From positions 83,948,001 through 84,012,000 of the forward strand of contig NC_092351.1 of the NCBI RefSeq assembly GCF_963676685.1: 64,000 nucleotides of DNA, read 5' to 3'. A model generated the notes under the pieces. That model did not search any database. It was not told where the DNA came from and saw only the letters and a list, made by a program, of their open reading frames with translations. Origin of the DNA: Mytilus edulis (Eukaryota). Both the position numbers and the translations under genes were made by a program. Positions 1 through 36,730 of this stretch are shown here, piece by piece; within the stretch, counting starts at the first letter, position 1; every line of letters begins with the position of its first letter.

Positions 1-89
1 GAGAAGAAACTGGGATAAGTAGATTTTGGGAGGTTCTTTATAATGGAGTCGATCAAGTATAATGTTGGCAACTTCTTGGTCGCGTCAAC
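1..89 (-). CDS. PCF11: PCF11 coding exon 2 (CID domain), truncated by window edge
   Basis: Minus strand reads tttcattttctcgctacag|GTT GAC GCG..., translating to VDATKKLPTLYLIDSIIKNLPKSTYPSFF. This matches the PCF11 CID motif (human EKLPVMYLMDSIVKNV). Phase 0, compatible with exon 1. Confidence 0.93.
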
Positions 90-2877
90 CTGTAGCGAGA
101 AAATGAAATATGATTCTCTGTCGAAAGTTGTAAGTGATCTGAAAATAGAAAGCAGAAGAGCAGGCTGTTCCAAATAAAATGTGTGAATATTAGTTTTAAT
201 GCAACATTGCTGAAGTCAGAATTAAAGTGCATAATGTTGCACTTAATTTCTTATTTTTTTTTACTCGGAGAACAAAATTTTAAAAAACCCAGATCTTAAA
301 TACTCTAATTTAATTTTCTGACCATTTTGTTGCATTAAAACATACAGATGCAAAATAATTGTACAATTGCTAGTGTCAATGGAACTTGAATACACAAAAA
401 ATATTTCAATACAATTTGTGAATATCAAATCATAGATTGACACAGCAAATATTTAATTACATTGCTACACTTCTCAAATTGAAATCTTACAGCACATTTT
501 ATGGATCAGCCCATATTGAGTTTCATGTCTTAATGAAAACATACATGACATATATATTATTGAAATAATATCAAATGCACAAATCAATAAATGCGTGAAT
601 AAAAAGTAAAGTGCAAAACACATCCTGAAATTAAAATGTAAATTTAAAGCAATTCAAATCAAATCAAATATGTAAACGAAAATTAACAACAAAGCGTATT
701 AGGTGTGTTTTTCATACATACGCGTCTAAATAAGTTGTTGATTTTATGAATTTAATTTTCTTGAGAATTGAATGCATAGATGTTTCAGGTTGACGTACTA
801 TCATACTTTTTTGCGAACATATCATTGGCTACACGTCCAGTAACGAAGTGTGTAAATTATTTTGATGCTCTGTAAAATTCTAATTCATTCATTTTTTCCT
901 GATGTACATATAATCATGTCACACGGTTAGCAGGCTCAACATTTGTTTTTCTTACAAATTATGACTTGGATCGATGGAGAGTTGTCTCATTGGCACTCAA
1001 ACCTTATCTTCTTTTATCTATATGATGATATTATCGCACGAGATGATTTTATCATGTCAAGAACTGTATGTGTAATTTGTATCCAATGTACAAATGGCAA
1101 AGAGTTTTCAAAAAGATATTGTTAACATACTAGTATAATATATAATATTTAAATATTCTTTATGAACAATATATGAATATATGAATTTTCTTTAGCATAA
1201 TCCAGTTTAACTAAGTTGTGAAGTCTTCTACACAAATACTTGTTGATAACAGATCAAGACCCACTGACCATTGAATATATAAGATCAATTCATTATGATT
1301 TAAGACTTGCCAAAAAAATAAGCTTCAAAATGAAACAAAAAGTATGCCAAATAATGCCTTGCTCCAAATAAGGAACTAGAAATGTACAGAGCTAAGCCAC
1401 TAAAATATGAAACACATCAACATGTGCCAATGTGGGAGACATAACAAACATTCTTTACTGACAACAATCAACAACACAAATGGTCAAATGTGATCTCCAT
1501 TATCTGCAGGCTTAAAGTCGATTTTGATACTACTGATATTAAAATAATCATATCTATGATGTATTATATATAATTACGTGCTTGGCAATGAGCTACAACA
1601 AACAAAACGGATATGCATATGTACGAACAACATACATTCAAATTGGACAGTAAGGCCCTGACTTCTTTTAATTTTAAATCCTGTTGAAAATGTCATGGTC
1701 ATCGCGTATTTTGTAATCCAAGAAAGTTGCTGGACAAAGCTGGAATCTGCAGGAATACATGACGACCTAACTTGACATATTATTCATCCACTCTTAAATG
1801 CAGAGTTATTGGCAGACAAGAAAAACATTTCAATCTTAGGTTTGACCAAAATTGGCCATTGAAACAAACCGTCCAATAGTGAAGACCAGGAAATAAAAAA
1901 ATCACATAATTTTCTCATTGATTCAACAGCAAATTTGTGACACAAGATTGATTTCACAACCTGTAGGTGTTTTTAAAACAATTTCAACACTCTTCCCAAT
2001 TTCATGGCTACTAGTAAATTATTAGTGGAGAGAGAGCTTGAGTTATTGTTAAAAAAAACATTTAGGTCCGTGTGTGAAAAGCAGTTGATGATTACTTGAT
2101 CCGACACTTTAAAATATATATATGCATCCACCGCATGAATGAAAAATATCAAAAACAACATCTCTTCTGAGCAAGAGTCTGCATCCAAAGGTTATCTTTC
2201 ATCTCTTTCAAAATTTGATCGCTGATGAATTTTTCTTATCCTTAAATGCGTCTGTTCAAAGCCAGAACAAGCTCAGGAGTCTTTCTGTCTTTTATTTTCC
2301 CCATTGCTGTTATATTTTTTCTTACAGTTGGTTTTTGGTAGTGAAGCAATCTGCCATGTTTTCTTGAAACCCCTTCCCATTTTTGTAAAAAAAAAAATGG
2401 CAGTGTCTTTTTTCCTTTGTATTTTATAACCTGCTGCAGTCCAGTGTATCCCTTTGCCCTAACAAGATCGAAAGTCTTGAAACCAGTATAAATCTTCCAA
2501 GAACAAAGCAGTACAATGGTTTCTTGAAGTCTTTCGGTTTCCATACATAAAAGTCGTTTAGAAGTATTGTTGAACAGAAACAATTTATAGAACAGTGTCG
2601 TTATTTATTGTTTATGTATATCCCAATGGCGCCTGCAGTTTACATGGTTTCGTGAATATACATGTAGCATGACAGCATATATAGATACTTTAATCTTAAT
2701 ATTTGTTTGTTTTTGATGTTGTTATGTTGCTCAGACTTATCCATTTACATGTGCTGTCTTCTCAATGATTATAATGATCATACAGTTTGTAATCTTTACA
2801 CATTTCACCATTTAAGGTTACAAATATACCCATGTATGGTGTAGTACTGTTATGTTATTGTCCATGATAATAATGAT

Positions 2878-3193
2878 GTACTTAGGTGAGGTTAGGAAAA
2901 AATTAAGAAATTAAGAAATTAAAATTGATACTATAAGCTGGTAGATCATCAATTAAGGATAAACATTAAAATTATATTTGCAGGTATTATTTGGTCTCAA
3001 AACAAAAGAAAGAAAATCAAGAATCTTCTAACATTTTGGTAAATGACCTTTCATGAGCTATTAAGTGTTATAAATATGAAAATATAAATGGGTGTTATGG
3101 GCCAAAATATTTTACATTGTATTGTATGGAAAAACACCAAGGAGTCCAAACATTTCATGATTTGACACAAATTCCAAAACCTCACCGAAGTAC
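2878..3193. mobile_element. small MITE-like element
   Basis: 16-bp inverted termini gtacttaggtgaggtt / aacctcaccgaagtac with 1 mismatch. Confidence 0.5.
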
Positions 3194-4656
3194 GTCCATA
3201 AATAATAATTGCTTTGTTGTTTACTTTGTTATCCTCTGGTCTCTAGTGTCTCATTGGCAATCATACTATATATTATGAGAATTTGTTTTAGCACAATTCA
3301 TATGTTAATTTTTCCATGTTTATTGGTATTCTCAACAAATAAGTTGAAGTGTTACAGCAATTTCATGAAATGCATCCAATATTGCCTTAAAGCTTACTGA
3401 TAGTGAAAAAAATCAAGAAATTTCAAAACCGTAAAGCTCAATGTGTAGTGCTCAAATCCTATTTCGCAGCGTTTTCGAACTTCAAAGAAATGTCTATCAA
3501 GATATGAATCATGGCTTCCAAAACAGTCATATTCCAGACATTTATAAATGTATTACAAATGTTTACAAGTGCATGTATATTCTTTATAACGAGATGAATG
3601 ATCACCAATCAATACGCGTTTATTTTTGGTTTAATGACATGTTAAAGCTGACTATAGCGGTTATAATAAATATCAGACTCCAAGTCATCACAAATTTATT
3701 ATGGTTGCCTTTTCTTTATTCACTGCTTCAACATTTACGAATTAAGAAACGCATATAGAATCAACCGCATATATTTTACATGAGTATAGCTTATATACAG
3801 TTGGCCTATTGCTTAGCCTAGTGGTTTCTTTATGACTGACTGAACAGGAAAATAAACCAATGAACTTAAATTTAAGGTCGTCAGATGAATTTTGCCAGAC
3901 AGACATTGCACCTTACAATCATTTCATGCACCAAATATAGTTAACCTTTTACTAATACTATAGTACAAAAATGTACTACAGATACAAATATGTCTTCCAA
4001 AAGAACCAAACTAAGGATACAAAACGAGTACAGGTACACTAAACAATTATTCTGTACACCAAATATAGTTTATTTGTGTTTTCCCGAGGCTACTGGTATT
4101 CAGTGCTTTCATACTTCAGCGTTGTGCTATTAGGCAGACAGACAGCAGGGCTATTGCAAACTTCACCAATTACATATTGCATTTGAAAGATTCAAAAGGT
4201 CTCTCACAATTCAAGCCAATTAGAGTACCCCAAATGTATATGGAACCATTCACAAGGTTGCCTGACACTGGGCAAAGGTCAGTATAAATGTCCTGTTAGT
4301 TAGATTCTGGTCCAGTTAAGAGCGGTTAACTGTACCAAATCCAGTTGAATTTTCAAAGCCTTTGGAACTACATGTAGTGCTGCGAGACTTTTACTAACAT
4401 TGAACCCATAAACAATATAACAACTCAATAACTAAATAGTCAGGTGATACAGTCAAGACAGTTTAATACACAAACAAACATTTATGGAAACAAAAACAAT
4501 ATGACACATGTGCAAATTGCAATGAGTAATTCAAAGTGCTTTATACCAGGACTTGTCAAAAGAATTTTTGAACCTAAGCAATGTTTTTTCTATCACCTTA
4601 TTTACCGGTAGTTATCAACTTTTCATTTCATATTCTAAATTTAAATATGACTAAAT

Positions 4657-4845
4657 AAGAAGTGGTATGGTTGCCAATGTGAATGTGACAACTGTCTACC
4701 AGAGACCTAAGGATGAGGACATAAACAACTATATGGGTTAAACCTGTTGCTCATTGTTGAAGGTCATAAAGACCTCAAGGCGAAGTTGGTTACATTCACA
4801 TCATTTGGACTCTGGTTAGTAGTTGTCTCACTGGCAATCATACAT
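4657..4845. repeat. inverted pair of Penelope-like 3'-end repeat fragments (family A)
   Basis: 4657-4735 is the minus-orientation copy (gtggtatggttgccaat...gacaact) and 4750-4845 the plus-orientation copy (gttgtctcactggcaatcatac) of the repeat best seen at 11686-11945. Confidence 0.55.
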
Positions 4846-4922
4846 GAACATATATGAAATATTTGGTCATGTGACAGTCGTTTACGTATGCCAGGGAAAC
4901 TTAGTTACTGAAGTGTAAATGT

Positions 4923-5023
4923 AGCAAGAGCTTACATGAAAGATGGTAAACTATGCCAGAGTAGGACGATGTCAGAGGAAATCTGTTGGAGGTACGTAGC
5001 GATTCCGATGTGCAAATCTTTCG
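4923..5023 (+). pseudogene. degenerate 28S (LSU) rRNA fragment
   Basis: gaaagatggtaaactatgccagagtaggacgatgtcagaggaaatctgttggaggtacgtagcgattccgatgtgcaaatc aligns with the conserved eukaryotic LSU core GAAAGATGGTGAACTATGCCTG...CAGAGGAAACTCTGGTGGAGGTCCGTAGCG...TGACGTGCAAATCG, with scattered substitutions. No other rDNA nearby. Confidence 0.85.
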
Positions 5024-6018
5024 GTGTAGTCACAGTCAATGTTTTCAGAACGTCTTATTTGAAACAAACACAACCACAATTTCTGTGTAAATGATGTGTA
5101 TAATATTTATCTTCAAAAAAGGAAATCTTTGAGAACCAAAGTAAAAAAAAAGGCTGTATCAGGATTTTTATCTTCATCGATTGATTGCATCATGAAGTAT
5201 TCTGAACTGTGCTTTTGTATAATATTATGTTCATGGTTGCATTTCATCAATAAAATAAAAGATTGATCACAATGTAACAGGAAGACCATCGCTATTTGTT
5301 TATCGTGGATGGAGATGATTTTGAAAATGGTAAAACATAGGTTTTTCTAGATCATATTAGACATAGCATTTCAAAGACTTGCTTGAAAAAGGTATAGTAC
5401 CAACTATTTCTATCTTATTTTGGTGGGAAAGTATAGAACTGTCATTACTGTTGGGTAACTGAAAATATACATGTACATGTACATATTTTTTTTACGTCTA
5501 ACAATAGACATCATTTTTTAAGAATAATCTTCGTCAGTATTATGGAATGTTTCATTAGCACTCATACCACATCTTCTTACACAAATATTATATGCTGAGT
5601 ATAGTTTTAATGTGATTGTTTCCATGGTGCTTTTATCTCATTTCAAGCCAACTAGACTTTGCTTTGACTCATTAACCCTTGGAATTGTTTTAGTTCATAC
5701 ATGTAAAAATAGCATTTTATGTCAAAATAAACAGCTGCCCCATGAACGCATAATACGCCCATCACATTTTGAAAGCATAAAATTCAATAACTTCTCATTG
5801 TCATATCAGAAATTAATGGGAAAAAGGTATACCAACCCCCAGTAAACTGGGACTCATCGCCAGCTGTCTGACGCTTGAATCCTGGTAAAAAGGGATTTTT
5901 CTTGAAAGTTGTTAGTGGAGAAGCAGCAAATACCAATTATAAAGATGTGGTTTGACCTAACCCTGGTTCTAATCAATGACCAAGCAGTAAAGGCTAACAG
6001 TCTATCTGTCTATTGACA

Positions 6019-7181
6019 TAAGGTCAAAAAAAATATATATATGTGGTTCCAGTTACACAGTCAGGGGTGGTACTTAAACAAGTGATTTCAAAATCACTTC
6101 TTTGAGTGATTTTGGCTGTGAAATATTTAAAATTTTCGCACAGACTTTTCAAAATCACTGAAACAAGTAATTTAAGAAGTTAAAATTTAATCACTTCAAT
6201 AAGTGTTTATATCATTTTTTGGATATTTTTCCACAAGCTTGATTTTTTCTTGGTAAAAAGACCAGAATTCCATTGAAAAAACAACTATGTACATACAGAA
6301 ATTGTCATTTGCTTGATAAGCCTGCCAGTTTTTACAGTTTATTTGATTATGCAAAAACTGGAATAATTTGTTGATCAGGACATAACCAATAAATCATTCT
6401 AATTCTAAAGAAAACCAATCAGGTCACCTTATATTGTTGACCTTTGTCTGGTAGTAGGAGTAGTTAATGAATATTTGATTACAGAAAAATTCCCAAGGGT
6501 ACTTTTAAAAGCTTTAGCGCACTAACTTACTGCCCAAGCGCACTGGTGAAATTGATATACAAAGATAAAGGGATAATTGATTTATGTAGGAAAATTATAG
6601 AAAAGTTTGTGAAAATATGGAAAATCAATGAAATTAGCATTTGAAGATCAAAGAAAACACCAAAATCACTTAAATAGGTGATAACTGAATATAAAAAAAT
6701 CACTGAAATAGGTGATAATGAAATCACTTGTTTAAGTAGCAGCCCTGACTGGTTACATCCTTATCAAAATAGGATCGAGAGCTAGGTCGACAATTTTTTT
6801 TTTCTAAATTTTTAATTTGGGTTGTCAAAATCAGGGAATAAAATCTGACTGAAATTGATTCCAGCAATACTGTTTTATACACGCCCCTACTGGAAGTTCA
6901 ACGTTTTACAGGAGTTGAGTTGTAAAATAAACATTCATGATAAGTTTTTAGTTACTTTCATTGCATTCTGTTATGAATTGTTGCATTTTAGCCATAACAG
7001 ATACTTCTGATGGCCAATCAAATTCAGATGACAGAAATCTACATATCTAATTATTGAAATACACATGTACAATCCTCAAAATTTGAGAGAAATGAAAACA
7101 AATTGTTCTTGTAGAGTCAGGGTTTAAACTAAGGTGGGTCGGGTAACTGGAACCAAACATATATAATTTTCTTTTGCCGTA
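6019..7181. mobile_element. MITE (aggYcaaa...tgtggttccagttac TIR family) carrying a nested insertion
   Basis: Ends taaggtcaaaa...tgtggttccagttac and gtaactggaaccaaaca...ttttgccgta. An uninterrupted relative lies at 52762-52984. Confidence 0.6.
6058..6751. mobile_element. non-autonomous DNA transposon, 33-bp TIR, 6-bp TSD
   Basis: TIR cagtcaggggtggtacttaaacaagtgatttca / tgaaatcacttgtttaagtagcagccctgactg (2 mismatches). TSD gttaca at 6052-6057 and 6752-6757. Subterminal aaatcact repeats. Confidence 0.85.
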
Positions 7182-7518
7182 TTTATGGTATAAATATTCT
7201 TTTTTTGACAAAATGTCTTAAAAATATGTTCAACAGACTTTTTCCCTCAGAATCTATGTTGCAGAAAGTATTGTTGAACCATACAAAACTTTTCATATGG
7301 ACTTCAATTATCTGCATAGAGCATTTAAGGTTGTTCAGAATTTAAATGGTATATATTTGTGTGAGGGCACTAATAAAAAAAACAAAATTAAAAGTCAACA
7401 AACATTTAATGTACACATATGCTATAAAGTATCTTCCAATCCTGAAATACAAACTTCAATTTTAAATTTTATTACATTTCAATGGCTATGAAGAACTGAA
7501 TCCACTTAAAAACACCTT

Positions 7519-7732
7519 TGGCCAAGAAAAAAAGTTTGTGTGTTTACTCTACCCCTACCTACCCTAATTTTTATCCCCTACCCTATTTTTTTTTGCCAAT
7601 TTTGATTAAGCACTGTTAAAGTTATAATGTTGCTTCAAAGACCAACAGACTCAATGTAAAAAAAATCCTGCCTTACCCTTTTTTTCTGCATGTGACAGTA
7701 AACACACATACATACTTTTTTGTTTGGCCGTA
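7519..7732. mobile_element. MITE with ggcca...tggcc ends
   Basis: Imperfect TIR ggccaagaaaaaaagtttgtgtgtttact / agtaaacacatacatacttttttgtttggcc with internal cctac repeats. A similar element lies at 55628-55877. Confidence 0.5.
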
Positions 7733-8162
7733 TGTTAAGTTTCAAAATAAACTAAAATGGGGTAAAGATTTTTTTTTTTAATTTATAGAATATTTCTTTG
7801 AAGCAATGAAATTTGCTTTAGGCTTGGCAAAATTTAGAAATAAATTTATTAGTACTTTTGATGAACGGGAGCATGACACTACATTGAAACTTCCAAAATG
7901 ATCAGATCATATCAAAATTAGCTCAGGCATGGCACTGTATACAACATAACCTCACTTATAACGACATGGGATTTTGGATACATCACTTTTGTGTTAAAAT
8001 AAATATGGTTTTATTTGTAATGCTGTCAGTGTTGTGCATATGCCATAGTTTAATAATTTTCTGCAAGTGTAGTCTTTGTTTATGATAAAAATACATTCTG
8101 GGTAATCAATTGAGTAGATTGGTGTTATATGGACGAGTTAAATGATGTAAAGGACATTGGAT

Positions 8163-9737
8163 CAGGGATGGGGTCGATTACTTTAAAATGTAATCGATTA
8201 AATTACAATTACTTTGCTAATAAAGTGTAATCGATTACATTACAATTACACCCTATTTTATATGTAATCAATTACATTAGATTACTTTTCTTCAAAGTAA
8301 TCATGATTACTTTAGATTACTTCTGATTACATTGTATATTGCAATATCAAAGGTTTTTTTATAACTTTTTATCCTCACAAAAAGCTAATTTTGGTGATTT
8401 TTTTAAAAGCCTTAATTTATTCATCTTATTCAAAAGAATTTATATACAACATGTGTAATTTGATAAAATAGCTATAGACAAGTGTCCTTTCTCTATGTAA
8501 AAGATATAACTTTATTTTTTTCTACCAAATTTTAACTAACTGCCTAATTACCAAAAAACCTGAACAAATAAGGAAAAATTAATTAAGTATAGTTTTATTG
8601 TCTGTTGGGACATAATTGACACATCCATTAATGTTTTTACAGGTGTTAATCACTACTTCCATTTTTTTAAGCAAACAATAGGAGAGCTTGGGTATTAAAA
8701 TTTTATTGTCTTAATAACAATATATCAATAAAGTTAAAAGTGGTTGATTGTCATTATTTGTTTGAAAATTTGTAATACTTGATCTAATTAATAATTAATA
8801 GATTTATTGCCAGGTGAAAACACAAAACAACTTTGTAACTTAGGAAAGTATATACATTTCTCTTTAAATTAAGAAACAGTTTATAATGTAATAAAAGATA
8901 TTTTGTATTGATAAAAATTCTGACATCACCTATTGTTTACTATGCACATTGTTTGTAATATTATGTGATATGTATACACTGTACTGTACTTGTTTATACT
9001 GATGAGTCTTAAGGCTCAAAGTTAATAAAGAATAAAAATTAGAGAGCACATATTATATACGAATTTATGGAATTTTTTTTTTATTAAATTTGTCAATAAA
9101 TGAAATCTGGTTTTAACTTCCATTTTGAATTAAGTGGGCTCATATATTTATGTCGACCATCAATCTCAAATTAGAACTAAATGTTTTCTGCATTTGAATT
9201 TTTAAGTAGTTATGTAAAAATATTGGGTAAACTTATATGAAATTGGAGTTAATCAGAAGTTTTCAATCAAGGGGGAAAAATGCAATCAAGGCATATTCTT
9301 GTATCATAAGAGCTCAATCTCTCAACAAAATATTGGAGAGGCAATTTTCTTCAGTAAACTGTAAACAAAATAAAACACTTGGTTATACAAATTTGTTATA
9401 TAGATGATACAATTTATCACATTAAACAAGGTCCAATCATTGTGAATACTAGTTTCATGATTTTCATTCAAGCTTTACATTTTCTTATTTTCATCTTGTC
9501 TATCAATAACTATTTTCATATATATACAAGATTTGTAATCAGCAAGTAATCATATGAATGTAATCATAAAGTAATCTAAAAGTAATCATGATTACACCTG
9601 TTTTTTGCAATGTAATCGATTACATTACGATTACTTGTAATCAGAAATGGCATGATTACTGATTACATAGGATTACACTGCAAAATGTAATCGATTACAG
9701 CTGATTACGATTACTGATTACGATTACCCCATGCCTG
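8163..9737. mobile_element. non-autonomous hAT-type DNA transposon
   Basis: Ends cagggatgggg / ccccatgcctg. Exact 8-bp TSD cattggat at 8155-8162 and 9738-9745. Many GATTAC/GTAATC subterminal repeats at both ends. Confidence 0.9.
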
Positions 9738-9806
9738 CATTGGATACAATGTATATCTGTTTGGGTATGTGTATAACTTTGAAACTTCATAAAGGACAAG
9801 CTATAA

Positions 9807-10269
9807 GGTTACAAGAGCGCAATTATTTGTTTACATTTTGCCGGCAAGTTTTTAACCCCAACATGGTACTCAAAATAGAATCCTACGGCTTCTGATTGGT
9901 TGATACAGGATTGGAATTACATTTAATCAAAAGCTTATCAAATTAGGTTTAAAAATTGCCGAAAATCATATTCACATTTTACAAAGTATAGAAAATATCT
10001 TCAATTTCTGCATGTCGGAGCCATTAAAAATATGCCTTTTTAATTAAGCGAAAAAAATAGACGATCTTTTTCAACTGCATTTTAAGTCAATTTGAGCCGC
10101 ATGACCCTATATATTTTTGTGGTTGTAAAATTAATGCAACACTGGCATTTCTAGAAACAGGAACTGCTACCCGTTTTTACCTAGTTTGTGTAGCCTTCGA
10201 GAAAAAAAATACAGAATACTAGTGGTACCCTATGGAAAATGCAGTTCAAATAAATCCGCTCTTGTAACC
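9807..10269. mobile_element. MITE with GG..CC ends and 4-bp TSD (Kolobok-like)
   Basis: 13-bp perfect TIR ggttacaagagcg / cgctcttgtaacc. The 4-mer ataa flanks both sides (9803-9806, 10270-10273). Confidence 0.7.
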
Positions 10270-10426
10270 ATAAAGCCCATATCCTGAAACTTTCTCTGGG
10301 CAGGTCAAGGTCATAGAGACCATATGGGCAATGATCTCATTTCACATATAACAATGCAGTTATTTTGTTATAATTTATGATAAAATGAATTGTAAACAAA
10401 AAATAATGAAATGAAAAAACTTAAAC

Positions 10427-10576
10427 CTCTTGTAAATGAGTCTCTATAACTTGAACTATCTTGGCAGCGTGTATTTCGTTGTCTTCCGCCAACATGGTCA
10501 ACATATTTATCAACGGTTTACTATTTTGCGTGAGATCCGCAAGGGAATTTCTGTATTCTTCGGTAACGTCCTCCAT
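10427..10576 (-). CDS. PCF11: PCF11 coding exon 1 (pre-mRNA cleavage complex II protein Pcf11, CID N-terminus)
   Basis: ATG at 10576; 150 nt translate to MEDVTEEYRNSLADLTQNSKPLINMLTMLAEDNEIHAAKIVQVIETHLQE (human DYQSSLEDLTFNSKPHINMLTILAEEN). Ends GAG|gtttaa in phase 0. Not in the ORF track because it is under 60 aa. Confidence 0.93.
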
Positions 10577-10659
10577 TGTGTTCTCTGGAAATGTACAAAT
10601 AAATGTCTGTCACAATAAATGTTCTAACATATTCTTCATTTTAACTTCTTCATGTTCGT

Positions 10660-10790
10660 GTATGTGTCTGTTTTACAAATGGCGATGATCAGGTGACTAC
10701 AACGTAATCGATTTGTTAAACTGATTTTCATTGGATAAAAGGAGGAAGTTCTAAAAGCTAATTGAGTCACGTGTTACATTTATTTACGCT
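10660..10790. promoter_or_regulatory. putative PCF11 proximal promoter
   Basis: About 100-200 bp upstream of the PCF11 ATG: YY1-like aaatggcg, reverse CCAAT (attgg), ETS-like ggaagt, tgagtca and E-box cacgtg. Motif matches only. Confidence 0.4.
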
Positions 10791-11129
10791 ACAATTTTTC
10801 AATAAATATTTTTTTAGTAAAAAGGAAATTTATACGGAAATTTCTACTAATAGATTCATTTTATAATTTGTGTTTCAAGTAGATTCAGTTTTTTATGTCT
10901 CTATAACATTAAATGACCAAATACCACAATAACATTATAAAATTATTAAACTACAACGGCTGATTCAAGTTATCATGAACATATTTTTTTTGTAAAACAA
11001 TTATAAGATCACGAATGTCACTTCAGAGATCATAGCCACAGTACTTAGTTTTTACCAAGCTGTCTTTTAAATCAAGAATATGCATAAAATATTTTCCTGC
11101 TTTCTCTGACTAACCATTGCTAAGGACAA

Positions 11130-12430
11130 ATCTTCAGGTACCGTGACAAGAATTAACTAAGGCGAAATGGGAGCTTCTGTGTTCTCATTTCGCCTTAGCT
11201 GTGAATTCCAGGTAAAAAAAGGTAGAAAATATACTAAGGCCAGATGGGAATTGAACTAAGGCAAAATGAGAATTTAAATAAACAAATTAAACCTCTGTGC
11301 TTTTATAGCAATTTTAACAACATTTAATAAGGCAATGTTTCTCTTGAATTATTATTTTTAATAAAAGTGACATTTTTTATGATTTTAAAAGAAAAAAATC
11401 CACAATAAAACATGATTCATTAGGAAAGTTGCTTCGTTTATGCTTAATTTAATATAAGTTTCAATTGTATAAATTTTATTTAATTAGAAGTTCTTAATAA
11501 TCAGTCATTTATCCTTTACATTGTGCAACACAAAGAGTTAAAAAAGAAAAAAAAATGGATTCCCTCAAACTTGTTTACATACATGTATATATTACAAAAA
11601 CTTTAATAAAATAAATAAAATAACATAATTTTTTTTAAATCGTGTTATAATTATATATAATAAAGATAATACATGTAAAATACAAAAAAAAAAGAAGATG
11701 TGGTATAATTGCCAATGAGACAACTCTCCACAAGAGACCAAAATGACACAGATATCAACAACTATAGGTCAACATACAGCCTTCAACAATGAGCAATGCC
11801 CATACTGCATGGTTAGCTATAAGAGGCCCCGAAATGACAATGTAAAACAATTCAAACGAGAAAACTAACGGCCTTATTTATGTACAAATAATGAACGAAA
11901 AAGAAATATGAAACACATAAACAAACGACAACCACTGAATTACATGGTATGCTATTATTTATAACATGTACATTTTCTTTATTAGTATGCAAATTTAAAA
12001 TTGGGTTTTGAATTCAGTGCTGATTCAGAGATGAAATATTTGTTATGATAGTATGATATTTGTCTTTTATTTATTCATTGATCAAAATATGAAATATCCA
12101 TATACAATTTGTCATATCTAATAAGACTTTATTTACAAAATATAACACATGAGTAAAAAAAAATCAGAAAAAGAACAGCAGCTATAAAAAAAAATATTTG
12201 AAAAGTGGGACACCAAAGATAAATAAATATTTCATGGTAGAATTTGACATCAAAATAACAAATAATAGCTAATTGCAATACTAATAAAACATAACTTAAT
12301 TACAATGTTTACAGAAGCTCCCATTTCGCCTTAGTTAATTCTTGTGTACCTGAAAATCTGTATACTAAGGCAAACTGGGATTAATTTAATATAATTATTT
12401 TGACAGTTAAGGCAAAATGAGAATAAGCGA
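11130..12430. mobile_element. DNA-transposon remnant with long inverted repeats
   Basis: 35-bp IR acaagaattaactaaggcgaaatgggagcttctgt (11146-11180) / acagaagctcccatttcgccttagttaattcttgt (12311-12345). The ctaaggc-aaatg motif recurs in both orientations. Confidence 0.6.
11686..11945 (-). repeat. dispersed repeat family A (probable Penelope-like 3' end)
   Basis: aagaagatgtggtataattgccaatgagacaactctccacaagagacc... Related copies at about 965, 3235, 4657, 5545, 19400, 30270, 50600 and 55415. Confidence 0.7.
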
Positions 12431-12836
12431 CTGCTAACTGGCCTACGTGACATTTCCTGCTTTGTTCAGTAACGGGCTTTGTTAATTTCTGTTTCTCTTA
12501 TTCTATAATTCTACAGTTGAGAGTTTTTTTTATCTAACCTGTAAAACATTGCATATTAAAGATTTACTAGTCTAACAAATATTTAAAAAAGGCAATAGTT
12601 GTCACCATGGTCAACTTTTGAACTGAACTTAATAAAAAAGGGAAGGGTATTGCTTATCATTAATTTTATCTCTTTTACTAAGTCCACTCCTGTTTTTTTT
12701 TATGTTAAAATATACTGTTTGGTTAGCAATAACATTCGTTTCATCATGAATGTAAACTATAGATTTTTAATTGGTATTATTTTTGTAATTTTTGTAATAA
12801 GGCTGAGTGGCCGTGATGTCGAAACCAACCGTTGGA

Positions 12837-12999
12837 GTTCACGGTCTCTTATTGCAATGAAGTATCTTTACCGCGGCAGGTTCACGGTCTCTTATTGCAG
12901 TGAAATATCTTTACCGCGGCAGGTTCACGGTCTCTTATTGCAGTGAAGTATCTTTACCGCGGCAGGTTCACGGTCTTTTATTGCAGTGAAGTATCTTTA
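12837..12999. repeat. 43-bp minisatellite, ~3.8 copies
   Basis: Unit gttcacggtctcttattgcagtgaagtatctttaccgcggcag starting at 12837, 12880, 12923 and 12966. Confidence 0.95.
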
Positions 13000-13224
13000 T
13001 GCAGGGACAGTCGACACTAAGTAAACAAAAACTGTCCCTGTTTAACGTCAAAAAGATGTGAAAAGTAATTACTATTACTTGATCTTTCAGTAGATTGTTC
13101 AAAAATGAATCCTACAGTATACCCTATTCAAATGAAGAATAAGATCAGTAGACCGATCAGTTGATGGTAGAATCTATTAAAAGTCTTGTGGTAATACTAA
13201 ATTACAGTAACTTCAATCACCTGT

Positions 13225-13382
13225 GGTCATCCCTAGTTTTTGGTGGGGTTCGTGTTGTTTATCTTTAGTTTTTATGTTGTGGCATGTGTACTATTGTTAA
13301 TCTGTTAATCTGTTTGTCTTTTTCATTTTTAGTCATAGCGTTGTCAGGTTATTTCCGAATTATGAGTTTGACTGTCCCTCTC
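13225..13382 (+). repeat. Penelope-like 3' UTR fragment (family C)
   Basis: cctagtttttggtggggttcgtgttg...tgtttgtctttttcattttta is the reverse complement of the 3' UTR of the PLE fragment at 56736-56840. Confidence 0.65.
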
Positions 13383-14277
13383 TTCAAGTCTGACTGAAAA
13401 TTAGCAGGTTTATGTCGACTCGACTATATTTTTTTTAAAAGGAAAAAAATATAGACACAATGACAATGGAACATATATCAGCATATACCAAATAAATACA
13501 TCAAGGAGGCCGCCCACCCATGATATTTACAAAAATCAAGACAACACATATTAACACTTCAAAATAGAACTAGATAAAAACAGTAAACTGAAACTTTTTA
13601 TAGATGTTTTTTTTTTAACTTGACAGATCATGATCATACACAGACATAATATTTTGTGAACGATAAACTACTGCTGTCTCTAATTTTTAGAAAAAAAACG
13701 TTCGTAATAGAAAATTCTAGGCCCGGCCCTGAAACTAAAAGACCGACATGCTGTAAAACTTAGTTGCGGAAAGCAAATTGAAAAAAGCTCGATAGTACAA
13801 TCAAAGCTGGCAAAGAGTTACGATCCAGCCCCTTCCTCTTGGGAACTGGTTTTGAATAACATTTCGATCGCTAACAATTATTGAAAGTAACACAAATAAG
13901 ATACAAAAATTTACATTTTCAACTACAAATATCATTCTCTGCATATAATTATTGAAATATAACACAGAGCAAATGATACTTCCACGGTATAACCCCAGGT
14001 ACTTGTCTCAGAAAAAAATATTCCTGTAGGTATTATATATAGGGATTGATTTTAGGAGACAAGTGCAAATCTCTTGATGTGTAACTAGTAAAACAAGAAA
14101 ATGTGCATTTACATGCGAATTTAAAATTAATTTCAAGTTATTAAAAATAAGATTAATATTGTGTTTTCGAAATATTATACTAAGTTTTAATTCTTACTTT
14201 ATTATCTCTATCCACCAATGTTGTTTAGGCTTTGAACTTTGATTGTTTAGTTTTGTACAAGTATTTTTTTCTTCATT

Positions 14278-15149
14278 CAGACGTTTCGCCATATGGCCAC
14301 ACTGCCGTATCCGCTTCGGACGTTTTGCCATATGGCTACACTGCCGTATCCGCTTCGGACGTTTCGACCACACTACAGTATCTGTTGCAGACGTTTTGGC
14401 CCGCTCTATGCGGTAATCTGCGTTTTGGCCATACTGCCGTATCTGCTGCAGACGTTTCGGCCAAACTGCCTATCTACTACAGACGTTTCGGACACAAGAC
14501 CGAATCTGCAAAAGCCGTTTCGGACACAAGACCGAATCTGCAAAAGCCGTTTCGGAAACAAGTCCGAATCTGCTAAAGCCGTTTCGGACGCACGACCGAA
14601 TTTGCCACAGCCGCCTTCGACCACATTGTCGAATCGGTTAGTGCCGTTTCGACCACAGGCGTTCCAGCCATGCTGCCTGTCTGGCCATACACTATCTGTA
14701 AAGTCGTTTCGGTCATGTGGTTTTTTTTTCTTGTTGTAAAGGGACGAAAATATAGTTGTTTTTAGAAGAAGAAATAATACAAAAATTAATTTTAATAATC
14801 ATGATCTAAATCAAGTCATATGTAATTGCATAGATAAAAATAAAAATATGTTTTAAATTAAAGAATGTTATAAACATATGATTGATGTTGATGTCAAGCA
14901 GAGACATAGCATATTGAATTATCTGTCTCCGTTTCAACAGGAACCTTCTATACTAAGTATCACTATAGGATACTGCGGTTTCAAGTCAATGAAATAATCT
15001 TTTTGTATAACAATCTGTACAGTATAAAATGTATCATTAACAAAACACGGCCCAAGCATACTAGGATCAATTTGAAAGGCCAATATGACCGAATCGACTG
15101 TGGTCGAAAAGTATGTGGTCGAACTGTTAGCGTGGCCGAAACGTCTCGA
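14278..15149. mobile_element. foldback-like element with tandem ~31-bp GACGTTTCGG subrepeats
   Basis: More than 10 diverging gacgtttcggcca/gccgtttcggaca units over 14278-14715. The same motif is inverted (tggtcgaa, tggccgaaacgtct) at 15085-15147. Confidence 0.65.
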
Positions 15150-15829
15150 TTTTTTTGTATAATAAATACAAAAACAATATTTCCATATTGATCCCTGATT
15201 AGGTGTCACATCTTCGATCATTAAGTTTTTCAAAACAAACTACTTTTTGGACATATTGTTTAGATCTTTGCAACATTAACACTTGTAACTTTGGTTTTAT
15301 GTAGAGTCGTGTAGATTTTTATTTTGTTCATTTTGACATTGGTTTTCACTTTAACTTTTGACTCATGGTTGTCCTTTTGGGGGTAATTGTTGCATCTCAC
15401 TTTTTAAAATTATAATTAGGTTATTGGGTAAATCACTGTTATTGGTGAAGAGTGATGTCCCCTTGATGATTAAAAACCAACATAATGACGGGGAAGATAT
15501 ACAATCAAAATTTTAAATGTGTCTTTTAATGAGTCATTTCTAAATTAATATAGGATGATCAGCCCATAAATAGAGCATTTAAAACCCAACAATTTAGTTC
15601 TATAATATATGGTTCGATCAATATAATCTATACAAAACGTTATAAGGTGAGCATAAATTATTTCACGTCTGACACTTGAAAAATATGAAATTACAGAATA
15701 ATCATTTATTATTTTATAATCAAAAGGTATTACATTTGACCAACTGTGTTATGTGACTTCATGTACAAGGCACAGAACTTTAGAATCTTGATTAGTCGGG
15801 GGACCAAAAAGCCTCAACTTCCTCAAGAC

Positions 15830-15957
15830 TAGTCCAAATAATTATGACGTCTTGAAAGGCTATTATAATTTTTTTCTTTGACGCCTTACTTCGACAAGTA
15901 AGGCGTCAAAGAAAAAAAATATAATAGCCTTTCAAGACGTCATAATTATTTGGACTA
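15830..15957. mobile_element. 128-bp palindromic MITE with 9-bp TSD (Academ- or MuDR-like)
   Basis: 62-bp arms with 1 mismatch, 4-nt loop cgac, termini TAGT..ACTA. TSD cctcaagac at 15821-15829 and 15958-15966. Confidence 0.9.
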
Positions 15958-17244
15958 CCTCAAGACATGCAAGGACAAGCGTCTTGTTTAGTCTGTCAGA
16001 TAGGGTTTTATTGTCCATTGTAGTCGCTATTTTATATAGGATAGTTATCATCAATGACAGTTAAATCTTGCCCTTTTATGTCTGAATTGATTATCTGGGC
16101 CCTCTCAATATTGAAGAATTTAAAAGAAATGTAAATTAAAGAAACCACAATGTAATGTACAACATTTTTTTTTTATTCCATGTGGACTTTGTGTTAGTCT
16201 TGTAATATGAGGCAGGCATTACCTGTAAATGGAAACAAAGTCTATGAATTATTTTTTTGTAACTTAATATTTTAAAAAAAAAAAGAAACGGAAATACCAT
16301 AACGTTTCTGATTTTGGTTCTGTTGTTAAGAATTTTAGTTGTGAAGTTATTTAAGTTATGACGTCATATGCAATGTAAACAAAGAAACGCTATCATCAGG
16401 TAACGTTTTTTCATATCAAGGAATTATCAAAAGTGAAATTGATATTGCGTTCCTTCCTATTTTATTCTAGACTGAAATATATATTTTACTCAAAGTTTCA
16501 TACAAACGAGACCGGACAAAGGAAGTACATTGTAGATTTCTGTGCAGATGTGGGAATTCAAAACATGACATCCAAAAAATTGAACGATTTTGAGTTCATT
16601 AGTACAATGAAAATTTCGGGAAAATATATTATTAAGAACATTTAATGCTCAAAAACACACCATTATTGCATTTAACATGATTAATAATAAACATTTCCAT
16701 GAATTTCAAGATTTTATATACCATGTATACATGTACCATATAAATATCTGATTAAGTTGATTAAACTTTAATACCATAATACGAATATTTTTGAATAAAA
16801 GTAGGGAGAAGAAAACTCGGGCGAACACTCACTCACTGCAGACCCTATATGGGTGAACGGACTGAGGAAGAATGAACCCAGGGCGAACAGACCCGATACC
16901 AGACCCCTCTATAGTAGAGCTCTCGGGAACTGAAGCTCATAGTTCCTTGATGTTATTTTTTACTATTTGCAGACGATCTATGGTCCGCAAATAGTACATT
17001 AGGACCTATAGCTACAATTCTGCAGCTACATGTACTTCTATCTATAGCACATTAATTGTTGTTCATAAAAGTTGAAAATTAAAATTATAAATGAAATTCA
17101 GAATAATAAATCTGGTTATAATTCATGTAATTAGTTGATGGTTGGTTAGTTGTAGTAAATCTGTGATGATGCCCACATCTCTTTTCCAGATGTTCTTGTA
17201 CCCCCTGGGTGACACTGTATTTTATTTTGTGTCAAAATGATTTA

Positions 17245-17502
17245 GGGAGCTACCATTTGATTTTTATGGGGGGGGGGGGGGGGGGATAGGATGAAATTTA
17301 TTAAAAAAAGGCAGGACAGGATTTTGAGTTAAAAAAAAAGGCAGGATGAGTAACTTGGCAAAAAAAAAAGGCAGGATGACAATTGTAAAAAAGTCAGGAT
17401 AAGCTAAGAAAAAAAAAGGCAGGACAGAATAGACTGAAAAATAAAAAGGCAGGACAGAGATTACAAATAAAAAAAAAGGCAGGACACAATTTTTCATCCT
17501 AG

Positions 17503-17534
<32 letters not shown>

Positions 17535-17551
17535 ATCAAATAGTAGCTCCC
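17245..17551. mobile_element. PIF/Harbinger-like MITE with poly-G/poly-C TIRs
   Basis: TIR gggagctaccatttgattttta+G-run / C-run+taaaaatcaaatagtagctccc. TSD tta. Internal aaaaaaggcagga repeats. Confidence 0.85.
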
Positions 17552-17673
17552 TTATTATTTATATAATTGATATTTTAGAAAGCAGCTTTCCTGGTATGGA
17601 ACTTGCACCAATGTTTTTTGTATGATACAAGTTTGATTTTTATCTACATGATCTATTTCATATCTATTTTAGC

Positions 17674-17760
17674 ATGGAAGATTACAAGTATTTGTTTAAA
17701 GTGGTATTGATTGGTGAAGCAGGTGTTGGGAAGACATGTCTTGTTAGAAGATTTACACAG
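17674..17760 (+). CDS. RAB30: RAB30 coding exon 1
   Basis: ttttag|cATG, translating to MEDYKYLFKVVLIGEAGVGKTCLVRRFTQ, then |gtatat. P-loop GxxxxGKT. The acceptor immediately upstream implies a further 5' exon. Confidence 0.95.
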
Positions 17761-18370
17761 GTATATTTACATTAGAATATTGTGTGAGACTCTATTTACC
17801 TTGGTCATTATTCATTAGATAGTTAGCCTTTGTGTAAACATGATACATGTAAATAGATGGAATATTAAACAAAGTTGAGAATGGAAATGGGGAATGCATG
17901 AAATATGTCAAAGAGACAACAACAATCATGACAATGACTTAAGTTTTATGAGGTGATAGAAAACCATTTGTTTTTTCATAAAAAGATTACCTTACCCATG
18001 TTAAAAACTATTGAATATATTTACATAAATAATTGCTGATGTCAAAAGTATTTTGCTAAACAACAAATTTATGTTATCGAAAGATTTGAAAAAATTAAAG
18101 GTTACTCACATGACGTACAGGTAAATTTTCTCTTATTCTTCTAGCTCTCTATTGTAAATAAACATTGATGTCCCTCATAAGCGAGACAACTAAAAAAGGG
18201 ATCTCTAATTACAGGGTCAATTACGGGAATTGACAAAAAGACTATTGTCATAGGCATATATGCCTAGTGAACTTTTGGTTTCCTTTATACAAGTATCCCT
18301 ATCCATGGAATGGTCTTTAATAGATTCTTTATTATAAATGACTGATTTTATGATTATTTGTTTATTTCAG

Positions 18371-18454
18371 GGACTATTCCCTCCAGGACAGGGGGCTACA
18401 ATTGGAGTAGATTTCATGATCAAAACTGTTGAAATAGATGGAGAGAAAGTGAAA
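18371..18454 (+). CDS. RAB30: RAB30 coding exon 2
   Basis: tttcag|GLFPPGQGATIGVDFMIKTVEIDGEKVK|gtaagt. The effector loop FPPGQGATIGVDF is diagnostic for Rab30. Confidence 0.96.
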
Positions 18455-19138
18455 GTAAGTAGTTGATTATACCTCCTGCTTTTTGTGCTAACTTATAGGT
18501 CATGGGAAAGGGTTTGAGCATTGGTTATGCTGAGACCAACATGGATGCTTGAATAATCAAATGTTGGTATGAATTATAGTGATTGGACTTAGCTATAGAC
18601 ATGTTAGAGAAAGCATGTAATTTTCCATGCTATTTTGATGCTAAAAAAATTTATCTCCCCACCCTTAAAAAAATTATTTTACTAGAGGCAGGAAACAATA
18701 CATATATTTCTTTTGCCTAAAGCAAAGTTATCAAGTATTAGATATAATATTACAAATTAGAGGTAACAAAGAAATATGTCATATAGTTTTTCTGCAGAGT
18801 GGTCAGCTGAAGGTTGGAGGCAAAAGTAAAAATAAAGTTATTGATTCTAACATAAATATTTTAGAATAAATAAAAAAAGACAGGAAATATGTTGGTGAAT
18901 CAACAATTTCAAATCTAAATGAAATTTAAAGTGGCCATGAACTCACTTATCATGCACAAGTTAATCTATTCATAAAACATTTTGATCATCTAAAAAGTGT
19001 CTGTAACCATGGTAACACATGTTAAATAATGTTCTGTTTTTATATAGCTTTGCTAGGGGCAAAGTCGTACAAATACTGTAAAATCATTTAAGGTGAACTC
19101 TTCCTGTTTTATTGTTTACACTTACTTTCTATTTTTAG

Positions 19139-19322
19139 CTACAGATTTGGGACACAGCTGGTCAAGAGAGGTTCCGCTCCATTACACAAAGTTACTATAG
19201 ATCTGCAAACTCTCTTATTCTAGTTTATGACGTCTGCTGCCAAGCATCTTTTGATTCATTACCCACATGGATTCAGGAAATAGAAACTTATGCCAGTACA
19301 AAGTTCTGTGGTTACTTAGTTG
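19139..19322 (+). CDS. RAB30: RAB30 coding exon 3
   Basis: ttttag|[61 protein letters not shown](G)|gtatgt, ending in phase 1. Confidence 0.96.
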
Positions 19323-19858
19323 GTATGTTATAAATTACACAATGTTTAAAAATACCATTGTTAATCAATATCTCATAAGAGATGCACTTTTTTTTTACTT
19401 TGTTTATTGTTGAAGGCAGTTTATTGACCTATGACTGCTGAATATCACATCATTTGGACTAGGATGAATGATTGTTTCATTAGAATCATACCACATCTTA
19501 TATACATTTTACCTATATTATGTTGAATTTGAATTGTATTACAAACAACAATAGAAAATCTGTTTATCAATCCTGATTCACTTTATACAAATATACAAAA
19601 AATAACAAGGTAACTACCGGTAACAGACTGATCCATGAACAACACAATAAACGAAAAACATATACAAATTTATGATATGCCTACTTACTTACATTTTCTG
19701 ATTTATATTGAAACCAAGCTTTTTTCAATGTTGAGGTTACTGTTATAAATACTTTTATCCTCTTGAATAACTTGCTGTTAATTTTCACTCTTTTTTGGGA
19801 ATCACAACGATGTCTGTGTATAGCTCCAGATGTATTATAAATGTTTATTTATTTTCAG

Positions 19859-20112
19859 GAAACAAAACAGATAAAATTAATGACAAAGAAATACCAACAC
19901 ACATTGGACAACAATTTGCCGACAGATACGAAATGGACTTTATTGAAACATCGGCAAAAGAAGCTGATAATGTTGATAAACTTTTCTATACTATCGCCAA
20001 AAAATTGTCAAAGGAAGCCAAACAAGGGGAGTTAATTTCTGATGACACTACAAAGTTCAACACAGACAATACAACCAGTATTTCAAACTGTAGTGGGTGT
20101 TTGAAATTTTAA
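19859..20112 (+). CDS. RAB30: RAB30 coding exon 4 (terminal)
   Basis: ttttcag|GA AAC AAA..., translating to (G)NKTD...ETSAKEADNVDKLF...NCSGCLKF*. The full spliced protein is 202 aa. Confidence 0.95.
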
Positions 20113-34554: not shown

Positions 34555-36537
34555 TCATTCTGTTTCAATTCTGTAAACCATAATGTCCTGTCCTCCACAA
34601 ACGCAAATTGCTTCTCCTCGATCGTCTATCCAAATATCCGTCGGCATTTTAGTCCTCTTATCGAATTGAAGCAATATTTTATCTTTTTTTCCATTGGATG
34701 AAACCGCATTTAACGAACCATTCCCAACTTGGTCTACTACTACAACAACACCAGATGGTGTAACGGTCAGGCAACCTGGACTTTCCAATGACAACGATTG
34801 AACACTAAACAGTTCATTGCCTTGAATTGTCAAACATTTGACTTGTTTGTAGCATGATGTATACAACCAGGTACCATCACGTAGTGCTACTCCATTTATC
34901 CTGGACGTTGTATTTATATTTGATTCAAGACACAAAGTGAAATGTTGTTCTACTTTGGAGTGCAATGATGGTTTAAACTTTTGTATTTTTTCACTCGATA
35001 CAACATATAAATCGTCGTCCCATATACCTACTTTAATCACCTGCACAACATTTTTGTTAAATGACAGAGTTAGAGGTTGTTCTATTACATTATCATTAAC
35101 ATCCGCCATCAAAAGCGTACTAGAAAAACCGAAACCAGCAACTACAAAAAGATGTTTTGATTTTTTATCAAAACATAAACATTTCAAGCTGTTAAGCTTA
35201 AGATCCTTGGTAATGACAGTGGTGTTTACCACATGACCGGTTTTTATGTTTAATGTGTACAGTATTCGTTCATTCTTGCTGTCAGCTCCAACTATGGCGT
35301 AATTGTCGCCAATGGAAACCCCGCATGTAATATCAGCATCTTGAATGAATATGTTTCGAAGATGTTTTACTGCAATGCCTTCAAAGTCAACAGCTTTTAT
35401 GCCAATCTTGCGTGACAGGTTAAACAAGTTCTTTGTTCGATCTTCCGAAGTTGTCGTTTTAACAATCGCTGTTCCAATGTCTTTAATATCAGAAACCTGT
35501 GTTAGAACATAATGCTTATTGAAAAAAATATGTGTGTCAATATCAGGAATAAATCTCTTCCCAAGTTGTGTAATATTTTCGTTGATCTGGCCAATCATAG
35601 TTTTCGAATGAATGAAAAATTGAGTTTCTGTACCATATTTTCTAATGACTTCAGTTGCGCTAATCCAGTGAGCTAATGTTCTCTTGAAATCGTTGAGAAA
35701 TTGTACATCCGCTTGAATATTTAAATCCTGCTCGTCTTGTATAATTTGCAATTGTTTGATAAAGTTTCCCAACAGATCATCAATCTTACACTTAATTGTC
35801 TGCACGAACTTAACAGCATCCTTTTCTATTATTTCAGTCGTATCTTTTAGTAATTTAAGTTTCGTTTCTTTAACGACAAGAAGGATATCCGTTTCCTGTT
35901 TCATTTTTTGTAACACTTCTTCCAAGGTTTCATTACCTCTTTTCGTTATAGTAATTTCAGAAAGCGTTTTGACATTTTCGCATTTACGATGACTTGAGGT
36001 TAAACAGAATACACAACACAGTTCTTCGTGATCAGTACAGAATGCTTCAACAATGTTTGAAGGGTGGAGGCTACATTTTTCTGATATAACTTCCAGATCG
36101 AAACCAGAATCAAAGAATTTTGCATCTTCAATCGGGATGACATTATGCGAGGAAGTCAATTTCACCCAACTGTGCATACCATTACATTTTTCACAAAAAG
36201 CTTCATTGCAATCCTTGCACCAGAAGTTGGCAACGGATGTTTCGCTGTGATGCTTACAAGTATGACACTCTTGCCTTTCAGCAGTTCCCACAACGTGGTT
36301 GTCTTGCAGTATCGAAGCCCATTTTTCAATATCGACTGTTGGGTCTCTTGGTTTGACAACGGTGTGACATATTGGGCATGTAAATTGTGTTGGTTTCGGT
36401 TCTTTGTTTTGGACTGTAGCTAAGATGATTTCATGTATGCATTGTTGACAAAATGAATGAAGACAAGGCAAAATTTTGGGCGATTTCAATACCTCTAGGC
36501 AAACAGGACACTTGAACTTGAGCTTTGATTCGGCCAT
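34555..36537 (-). CDS. TRIM-family E3 ubiquitin ligase (RING-Bbox1-Bbox2-coiled coil-degenerate beta-propeller; TRIM56/33/45-like)
   Basis: Intact 660-aa ORF from the ATG at 36537 (MAESKLKFKCPVC..LPCLHSFCQQC..CPIC). B-box1 CHTC..CKDC..CEKC..H; B-box2 CSLH..FCTDH..CCVFC..H. Splice acceptor tttgtatcag 21 nt upstream of the ATG. Confidence 0.92.
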   Translation of the reverse strand: MAESKLKFKCPVCLEVLKSPKILPCLHSFCQQCIHEIILATVQNKEPKPTQFTCPICHTVVKPRDPTVDIEKWASILQDNHVVGTAERQECHTCKHHSETSVANFWCKDCNEAFCEKCNGMHSWVKLTSSHNVIPIEDAKFFDSGFDLEVISEKCSLHPSNIVEAFCTDHEELCCVFCLTSSHRKCENVKTLSEITITKRGNETLEEVLQKMKQETDILLVVKETKLKLLKDTTEIIEKDAVKFVQTIKCKIDDLLGNFIKQLQIIQDEQDLNIQADVQFLNDFKRTLAHWISATEVIRKYGTETQFFIHSKTMIGQINENITQLGKRFIPDIDTHIFFNKHYVLTQVSDIKDIGTAIVKTTTSEDRTKNLFNLSRKIGIKAVDFEGIAVKHLRNIFIQDADITCGVSIGDNYAIVGADSKNERILYTLNIKTGHVVNTTVITKDLKLNSLKCLCFDKKSKHLFVVAGFGFSSTLLMADVNDNVIEQPLTLSFNKNVVQVIKVGIWDDDLYVVSSEKIQKFKPSLHSKVEQHFTLCLESNINTTSRINGVALRDGTWLYTSCYKQVKCLTIQGNELFSVQSLSLESPGCLTVTPSGVVVVVDQVGNGSLNAVSSNGKKDKILLQFDKRTKMPTDIWIDDRGEAICVCGGQDIMVYRIETE

Positions 36538-36730
36538 CTTGGATTGATGTTTTACTTCCTGATACAAAATCAACTTAAATTCAAAAGTCTATTTAAAGAT
36601 TTGAACTGCATTCAATATATACAATTCAATCTGGTCCAAATTTTGGACTCAATTATCTGTTGATTTTTTGGTCATCATTCGGATGCCAATGTTTACACAC
36701 CCTGCTACAAATATCAAAATAACAATTGAT

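Follow-up and report, generated by a model that had tools for sequence, protein, structure and literature searches.

The window analysed in this work comprises 64,000 nucleotides (nt) of the Mytilus edulis genome (contig NC_092351.1, positions 83,948,001 to 84,012,000 of the forward strand) and harbors, towards its left end, the divergently oriented genes PCF11 (minus strand, ATG at 10576) and RAB30 (plus strand, ATG at 17674), whose start codons are separated by 7,097 nt. A preliminary description of this DNA, made from the letters alone, had pointed out the divergent arrangement and the lack of a further coding gene between the two, and had suggested that the pairing dates back to the bilaterian ancestor. 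The arrangement was confirmed by a scan of the gap for open reading frames (ORFs) and by RNA coverage: none of 13 ORF translations from the gap region gave a Pfam match above the cut-off, and strand-specific RNA revealed no coverage over 10.9-15.2 kb except at repeats. The proposed age likewise gained support, as linkage of the pair was found across molluscs, arthropods and mammals as well as in amphioxus, an annelid and a brachiopod, documented mostly by accession order or block membership and in two cases by DNA.

The 50 amino acids (aa) encoded by PCF11 exon 1 (10576-10427) were found to match yeast Pcf11 in the PDB as well as PCF11 proteins across animals. Exon 2 gave a weak Pfam match to the CID domain (E 0.0036) and was also identified by tblastn with bivalve PCF11 and by an RNA junction, the removal of intron 1 being documented by 39 spliced reads in RNA run X21 plus contigs in runs X2 and X13. 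The CID, central and zinc-finger exons carry on outside the window as revealed by tblastn, whereby bivalve and fish PCF11 align collinearly with the minus strand across ~31 kb and reach the zinc-finger exons beyond the window. With N-terminal CID and C-terminal zinc-finger regions located within one gene, the minus-strand gene is identified as the PCF11 orthologue. Its RNA 5' ends pile up at 10694-10698 in stranded RNA, with 21 of 39, 20 of 38 and 18 of 41 molecules ending at 10694 in three stranded runs. Putative promoter motifs were read from the adjoining sequence (Table 1), of which GCCATTT is YY1-like. Vertebrate PCF11 possesses a self-regulating intron 1 with intronic polyadenylation (PMC6458999), and by analogy the mussel intron 1 may be its counterpart. 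A 3'-end pile-up was sought within the mussel intron and none was found in the RNA runs, these libraries being unable to decide the matter; AATAAA occurs 17 times over its 10.3 kb of AT-rich DNA. As a separate observation, one X2 contig (10119-10453) extends ~300 nt into this intron.

For the plus-strand gene, RNA confirmed all three coding junctions, and the resulting 202-aa product is identical to the Mytilus protein record P0048, named Rab-30-like. The preliminary description had reasoned that a splice acceptor directly preceding the RAB30 ATG places the transcription start further upstream, which proved correct: splicing from 15646 to 17673 is supported by 79, 108 and 38 reads in three runs, hence the AG is a real acceptor, and a non-coding exon precedes the intron, its RNA 5' ends being recorded at 15438-15452 in two of the three stranded runs. 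In comparison with PDB entries, the protein scored 266 bits with human Rab30, as opposed to 189 with Rab43, 188 with Ypt1 and 166 with Rab33B, and exon 4 by itself gave 88 bits for Rab30 vs 75. Within a tree of 41 rows the mussel protein groups among bivalve Rab30s in a 20-row Rab30 clade (support 99/94), whose sister is this genome's own Rab33 (96/91, on a long branch). The row for the genome's own Rab43-like protein was partial. As the tree holds zero vertebrate rows, it is the comparison with PDB entries that supports orthology to vertebrate Rab30. Of the 150 candidates scored out of 215, the present locus is the sole one in the mussel genome to match at >76% identity. Judged by these sequence comparisons the gene is a true RAB30, so that the refuting outcome named in the preliminary description, a placement of the Rab outside Rab30, did not occur. 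A public Mytilus RAB30 model (P0049, 242 aa) derives its N-terminus from 15085-15646 (+) and skips the real start; this model is likely a mis-prediction, since RNA depth is almost nil before 15227. Furthermore, the 5' untranslated region (UTR) intron was seen to contain a near-perfect palindrome with 62-nt arms and a repeat element ended by G- and C-runs (15830-15957 and 17244-17552).

Expression of PCF11 as well as RAB30 was seen in each of the three stranded RNA runs, which were chosen by species label and may derive from a sister species. The distance between their RNA 5' ends, taken from RNA-seq ends and not from cap analysis of gene expression (CAGE), amounts to 4,744 nt. Repeats occupy about 2,011 nt of this spacer, the largest being a dispersed element of ~1.3 kb with dozens of genome copies at 83-95% identity, which carries inverted repeats and likely represents a non-autonomous DNA transposon.

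To document the linkage in other animals, metagenomes were scanned with PCF11 exon 1, which yielded 40 loci. Rab30 was found head to head with PCF11 in eight of these, at 795-803 nt from ATG to ATG, all eight belonging to one Blattodea-like (termite-like) lineage with a Rab30 closest to a Coptotermes record, and therefore counting as one observation. Because of this short distance between the ATGs, the predicted termite-like transcription starts must lie <1 kb apart; the Rab30 introns reside at the same three positions as in the mussel gene. Among the other 32 loci, 25 possess <2.8 kb of sequence upstream of PCF11. Protein records obtained by homologue searches were evaluated using scaffold size and the nearness of accession or locus-tag numbers as a proxy for linkage, whereby both proteins were identified on one scaffold in 21 of the 24 species having both. 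The numbers lie within 10 of each other in nine of the 24, namely in Lingula (XP_013419944-47), Patella caerulea (SNE40_015954/5), P. vulgata and Saccostrea cucullata, and in the insects Ladona (LFUL009052/3), Gryllus (GLH15246-48), Anabrus, Carabus (GLV35194/5) and Sitophilus. On one scaffold, with numbers that are not comparable, are the proteins of Cephus, Athalia and Haliotis.

Both genes already figure in a published collection of conserved blocks, the Syntenic Density Database: Robert et al. 2022 (PMC8851819, supplementary file 4) assign them to block 470, classified as 'Bilateria novel', with PCF11 as orthogroup OG0003002 and the Rab as OG0000081, where blocks require three orthologues and tolerate up to five genes between them. 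As listed, block 470 spans at least 66 rows and at least 12 species, and among the matches listed PCF11 and the Rab orthogroup co-occur in 7 of 12 species, making the Rab the most frequent partner of PCF11, ahead of NAA15 and OG0003400 (5 species each). Co-occurrence was reported for Capitella, Euprymna and Lottia, for Branchiostoma (with DDIAS and NARS2), for Adineta (where the Rab is labelled RAB37) and, with consecutive identifiers, for Crassostrea gigas (EKC36361/36362) and Strigamia (SMAR007484/5); the Capitella and Lottia Rab identifiers are the same as those of the Rab30 homologue records P0077 and P0116. No Rab30 from an invertebrate deuterostome or cnidarian was found among the best 120 of 366 matches listed in our own searches, hence the amphioxus linkage rests on the published table. 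The linkage as such is therefore already catalogued; the published table carries no strand or promoter data and does not single out PCF11-RAB30 (PMC8851819). Full-text literature searches, evaluated by titles and abstracts, found no main text discussing the pair, and neither gene name occurs in the one supplementary file of Touceda-Suarez 2020 or in 12 of the 16 supplementary files of a sponge histone paper (PMC5429095).

The preliminary description had also named the human genes as adjacent and divergent. Human PCF11 and RAB30 stand head to head across a gap of ~85 kb, with RAB30-DT between them. Of these features, adjacency was upheld by a human genome-wide association study (GWAS) table in which rs4293143 is annotated as intergenic 'PCF11, RAB30' (PMC3543264). 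A horse region lists CCDC90B, ANKRD42, PCF11 and RAB30 (PMC7143816), and a human long non-coding RNA named RAB30-DT does exist (PMC12512555).

In C. gigas, the order of identifiers reads Rab30, PCF11, OG0003400, NAA15, malate synthase and NXT (PMC8851819, as listed). Within the mussel genome, malate synthase was located on the same contig (C8) at 0.7 Mb from PCF11-RAB30, and Rab33 together with NAA15, which adjoin each other divergently, at 57.6 Mb. It follows that block 470 came apart in the mussel, where its other members now lie elsewhere while PCF11-RAB30 are still together.

Considering these data, three alternatives have to be weighed against the reading which we prefer with a probability of about 0.6, namely that PCF11-RAB30 descends from a bilaterian head-to-head arrangement and was retained because breakage of the upstream region common to the two housekeeping genes harms the promoter of one or both. 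For independent adjacency in mussel and human, or a Rab other than Rab30, no evidence was found. Adjacency in one genome is not by itself beyond chance; recurrence across phyla is, and since the orthology tests and the linkage in many intermediate lineages contradict this explanation, its probability is close to negligible, just as a single ancestral origin of the pair is very probable. A single bidirectional core promoter driving both mussel genes from within 10580-13100, the interval which the preliminary description had proposed for a reporter, would fit the divergent orientation, the upstream non-coding exon of RAB30 and the compact layout of the termite-like insect. However, the RAB30 5' ends fall outside this interval, strand-specific depth is about zero over 12.4-15.2 kb in three runs, and no RNA junction joining the 10.7-13 kb region to RAB30 was seen, which renders this explanation highly improbable. 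The 4,744 nt between the two 5' ends are moreover far above the <1 kb between starts that Irimia et al. 2012 (PMC3514665) took as the bidirectional-promoter signature. The mussel pair thus lacks one shared bidirectional core promoter, and the earlier idea of such a promoter found no support in this species.

The serious rival is passive retention, according to which an ancient pair endured because a spacer flanked by two 5' ends offers few sites for breakpoints and slowly rearranging lineages happen never to have broken it. PCF11, acting in 3'-end processing, and RAB30, acting in Golgi traffic, are not known to share a functional link. The spacer ranges from ~0.8 kb in the insect (ATG to ATG) to 7.1 kb in the mussel, where it is filled with repeats, and block 470 holds other long-lived neighbours, such as NAA15, which accompanies PCF11 in 5 species among the matches listed. 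Losses do occur: in the Daphnia-like contig L047 no Rab30 was found in 4,967 nt upstream of PCF11, its place being taken by a gene with a SAM domain, a second, multi-exon gene and other open frames (1-3000), so that the pair is broken there; and among three species without a common scaffold (Harpegnathos, Homalodisca and Microctonus, the latter two represented by different or fragmented assemblies), the RefSeq proteins of the ant Harpegnathos reside on separate scaffolds, meaning that the pair is likely broken in this species as well. These losses and the tolerance of the mussel spacer for a 1.3-kb mobile element and further repeats weigh against the preferred reading, which several other observations qualify. 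Head-to-head orientation was observed in DNA for the mussel and one insect lineage, accession order being a proxy which shows neither strand nor orientation. For nine species with both proteins on one scaffold (Chelonus, Andrena, Chamberlinius, Wasmannia, S. echinata, Solemya, Tegillarca, Lineus and Gigantopelta) the numbers are 60-1020 apart, a distance which neither shows nor excludes adjacency, since S. echinata has them 175 apart and its congener 8 apart. Seven metagenome loci with 2.9-6.4 kb upstream of PCF11, L047 being one of them, revealed no Rab30 coding exon within this reach, beyond which the mussel RAB30 ATG, 7.1 kb off, would itself lie. For Ptychodera and Mizuhopecten, the matches listed under block 470 include PCF11 and lack the Rab. 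Finally, a spacing of 51 nt between CCAAT and GCCATTT, identical in the mussel and the termite-like (L009/L020) PCF11 promoters, was considered as a conserved promoter signal and rejected, as this motif pair was chosen after two sequences had been inspected and recurs in merely 3 of the 27 sequences taken from upstream of PCF11.

Passive retention is nevertheless considered the distinctly less probable explanation, as the pair has remained intact in the mussel where the other block members have not, and survives in insects and mammals, which lost 50% and 84% of bilaterian blocks, respectively (PMC8851819). For the preferred reading, retention through disturbance of promoters upon breakage, the course of events would be as follows: in the bilaterian ancestor PCF11 and RAB30 would have stood head to head, and breaks within their common upstream region would have harmed one or both housekeeping promoters, making the region resistant to breakage. 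The insect would have a compact spacer, whereas repeats would have expanded the mussel spacer into two separate promoters. That selection on the shared upstream region is the reason for retention appears slightly more plausible than its opposite, and the chances are evenly divided on whether the ancestral promoter was compact like that of the insect and has since been pushed apart by repeats in the mussel.

A further idea concerns the second Rab. The gene ontology (GO) label of OG0003400 fits RAB33B, and since the mussel Rab33 adjoins NAA15 as well, OG0003400 is inferred to be Rab33. Rab30 and Rab33 were both reported to have arisen from Rab1 in animals (PMC3425129). If OG0003400 is Rab33, PCF11 once stood between two Rabs that are sisters in the present tree, which would suggest an old local duplication. 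Rather speculatively, RAB30-PCF11-RAB33 may then be the fossil of a local duplication which split sister Golgi Rabs around PCF11 early in animals, with PCF11-RAB30 held by a shared promoter domain that was stretched, without being broken, from <1 kb in the termite-like insect to 4.7 kb in the mussel and tens of kb in human. Were this true, the stretched spacer would offer a natural series for one bidirectional promoter resolving into two.

The coordinates of the mussel features are compiled in Table 1. Elsewhere in the window, a TRIM-like uninterrupted frame of 677 aa, in which RING and B-box domains were recognised, was identified at 34555-36588 (-), and an open frame with a Cyclase domain (PF04199) at 59770-60396 (+); a run of 100 N lies at about 56.5-56.6 kb. 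Beyond the PCF11 3' end, long gag- and pol-like retrotransposon frames are found (L006 1-3440, L007 7712-10000), and a 232-aa open frame without a Pfam match (L007 1-696), which resembles Mab-21-family genes.

Table 1. Features of the PCF11-RAB30 locus (window coordinates) and location of former block-470 members on contig C8.
Feature	Position	Strand	Remarks
PCF11 exon 2	1..89	-	CID domain; runs past left end of window
PCF11 intron 1	90..10426	-	10,337 nt, GT-AG
PCF11 exon 1	10427..10694	-	~118-nt 5' UTR and 50 codons
PCF11 proximal promoter motifs	10677..10775	-	ACGTG, CCAAT, GCCATTT; putative
Dispersed element	11120..12430	.	~1.3 kb; 35-nt perfect inverted repeats 11146-11180 / 12311-12345
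Tandem repeat, 43-nt unit	12837..12999	.	
Dispersed repeat, ~160 nt	13218..13381	.	42 other genome matches
Degenerate 32-nt repeat array	14287..14659	.	GC- and CpG-rich; one other genome locus
RAB30 exon 1, non-coding	15438..15646	+	stranded depth and end pile-ups in runs X21, X23
RAB30 5' UTR intron	15647..17672	+	2,026 nt, GT-AG
RAB30 exon 2	17673..17760	+	coding 17674-17760; ATG 17674, P-loop
RAB30 exon 3	18371..18454	+	RNA-supported coding exon
RAB30 exon 4	19139..19322	+	RNA-supported coding exon
RAB30 last coding exon	19859..20112	+	ends at stop codon
PCF11-RAB30	C8 83.96 Mb		
Malate synthase	C8 84.66 Mb		
Rab33	C8 26.358-26.360 Mb (L048 2253-3998)	-	
NAA15	C8 26.370-26.379 Mb	+	

The general view of conserved gene neighbourhoods remains unchanged by these findings, as hundreds of such pairs and blocks have been catalogued, among them 595 conserved ancestral microsyntenic pairs (CAMPs; Irimia et al. 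2012, PMC3514665) and 256 bilaterian-novel blocks (Robert et al. 2022, PMC8851819), and PCF11-RAB30 is an ordinary example of a conserved 5'-5' pair of housekeeping genes. What is added to the catalogue are the mapped starts of a mollusc, the direct documentation of orientation in two phyla, two likely losses, additional species with linkage, among them five insects and a brachiopod with adjacent accessions, and the split of block 470 in the mussel. The pair may hence serve as a worked example of bilaterian age, usable for asking whether shared regulation or chance retention keeps such genes together. Among CAMPs, 5'-5' orientation and co-expression were found to be over-represented, 54.8% of the human ones being oriented 5'-5' (PMC3514665), and PCF11 and RAB30 resemble them in being unrelated genes which are adjacent in several major lineages and divergent in the mussel and one insect. 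With classical bidirectional promoters such as that of HSPE1-HSPD1 the pair shares the head-to-head layout, the termite-like locus spanning <1 kb even from ATG to ATG, whereas the mussel locus differs from this type by the 4.74 kb that separate its starts, a stretch containing mobile elements.

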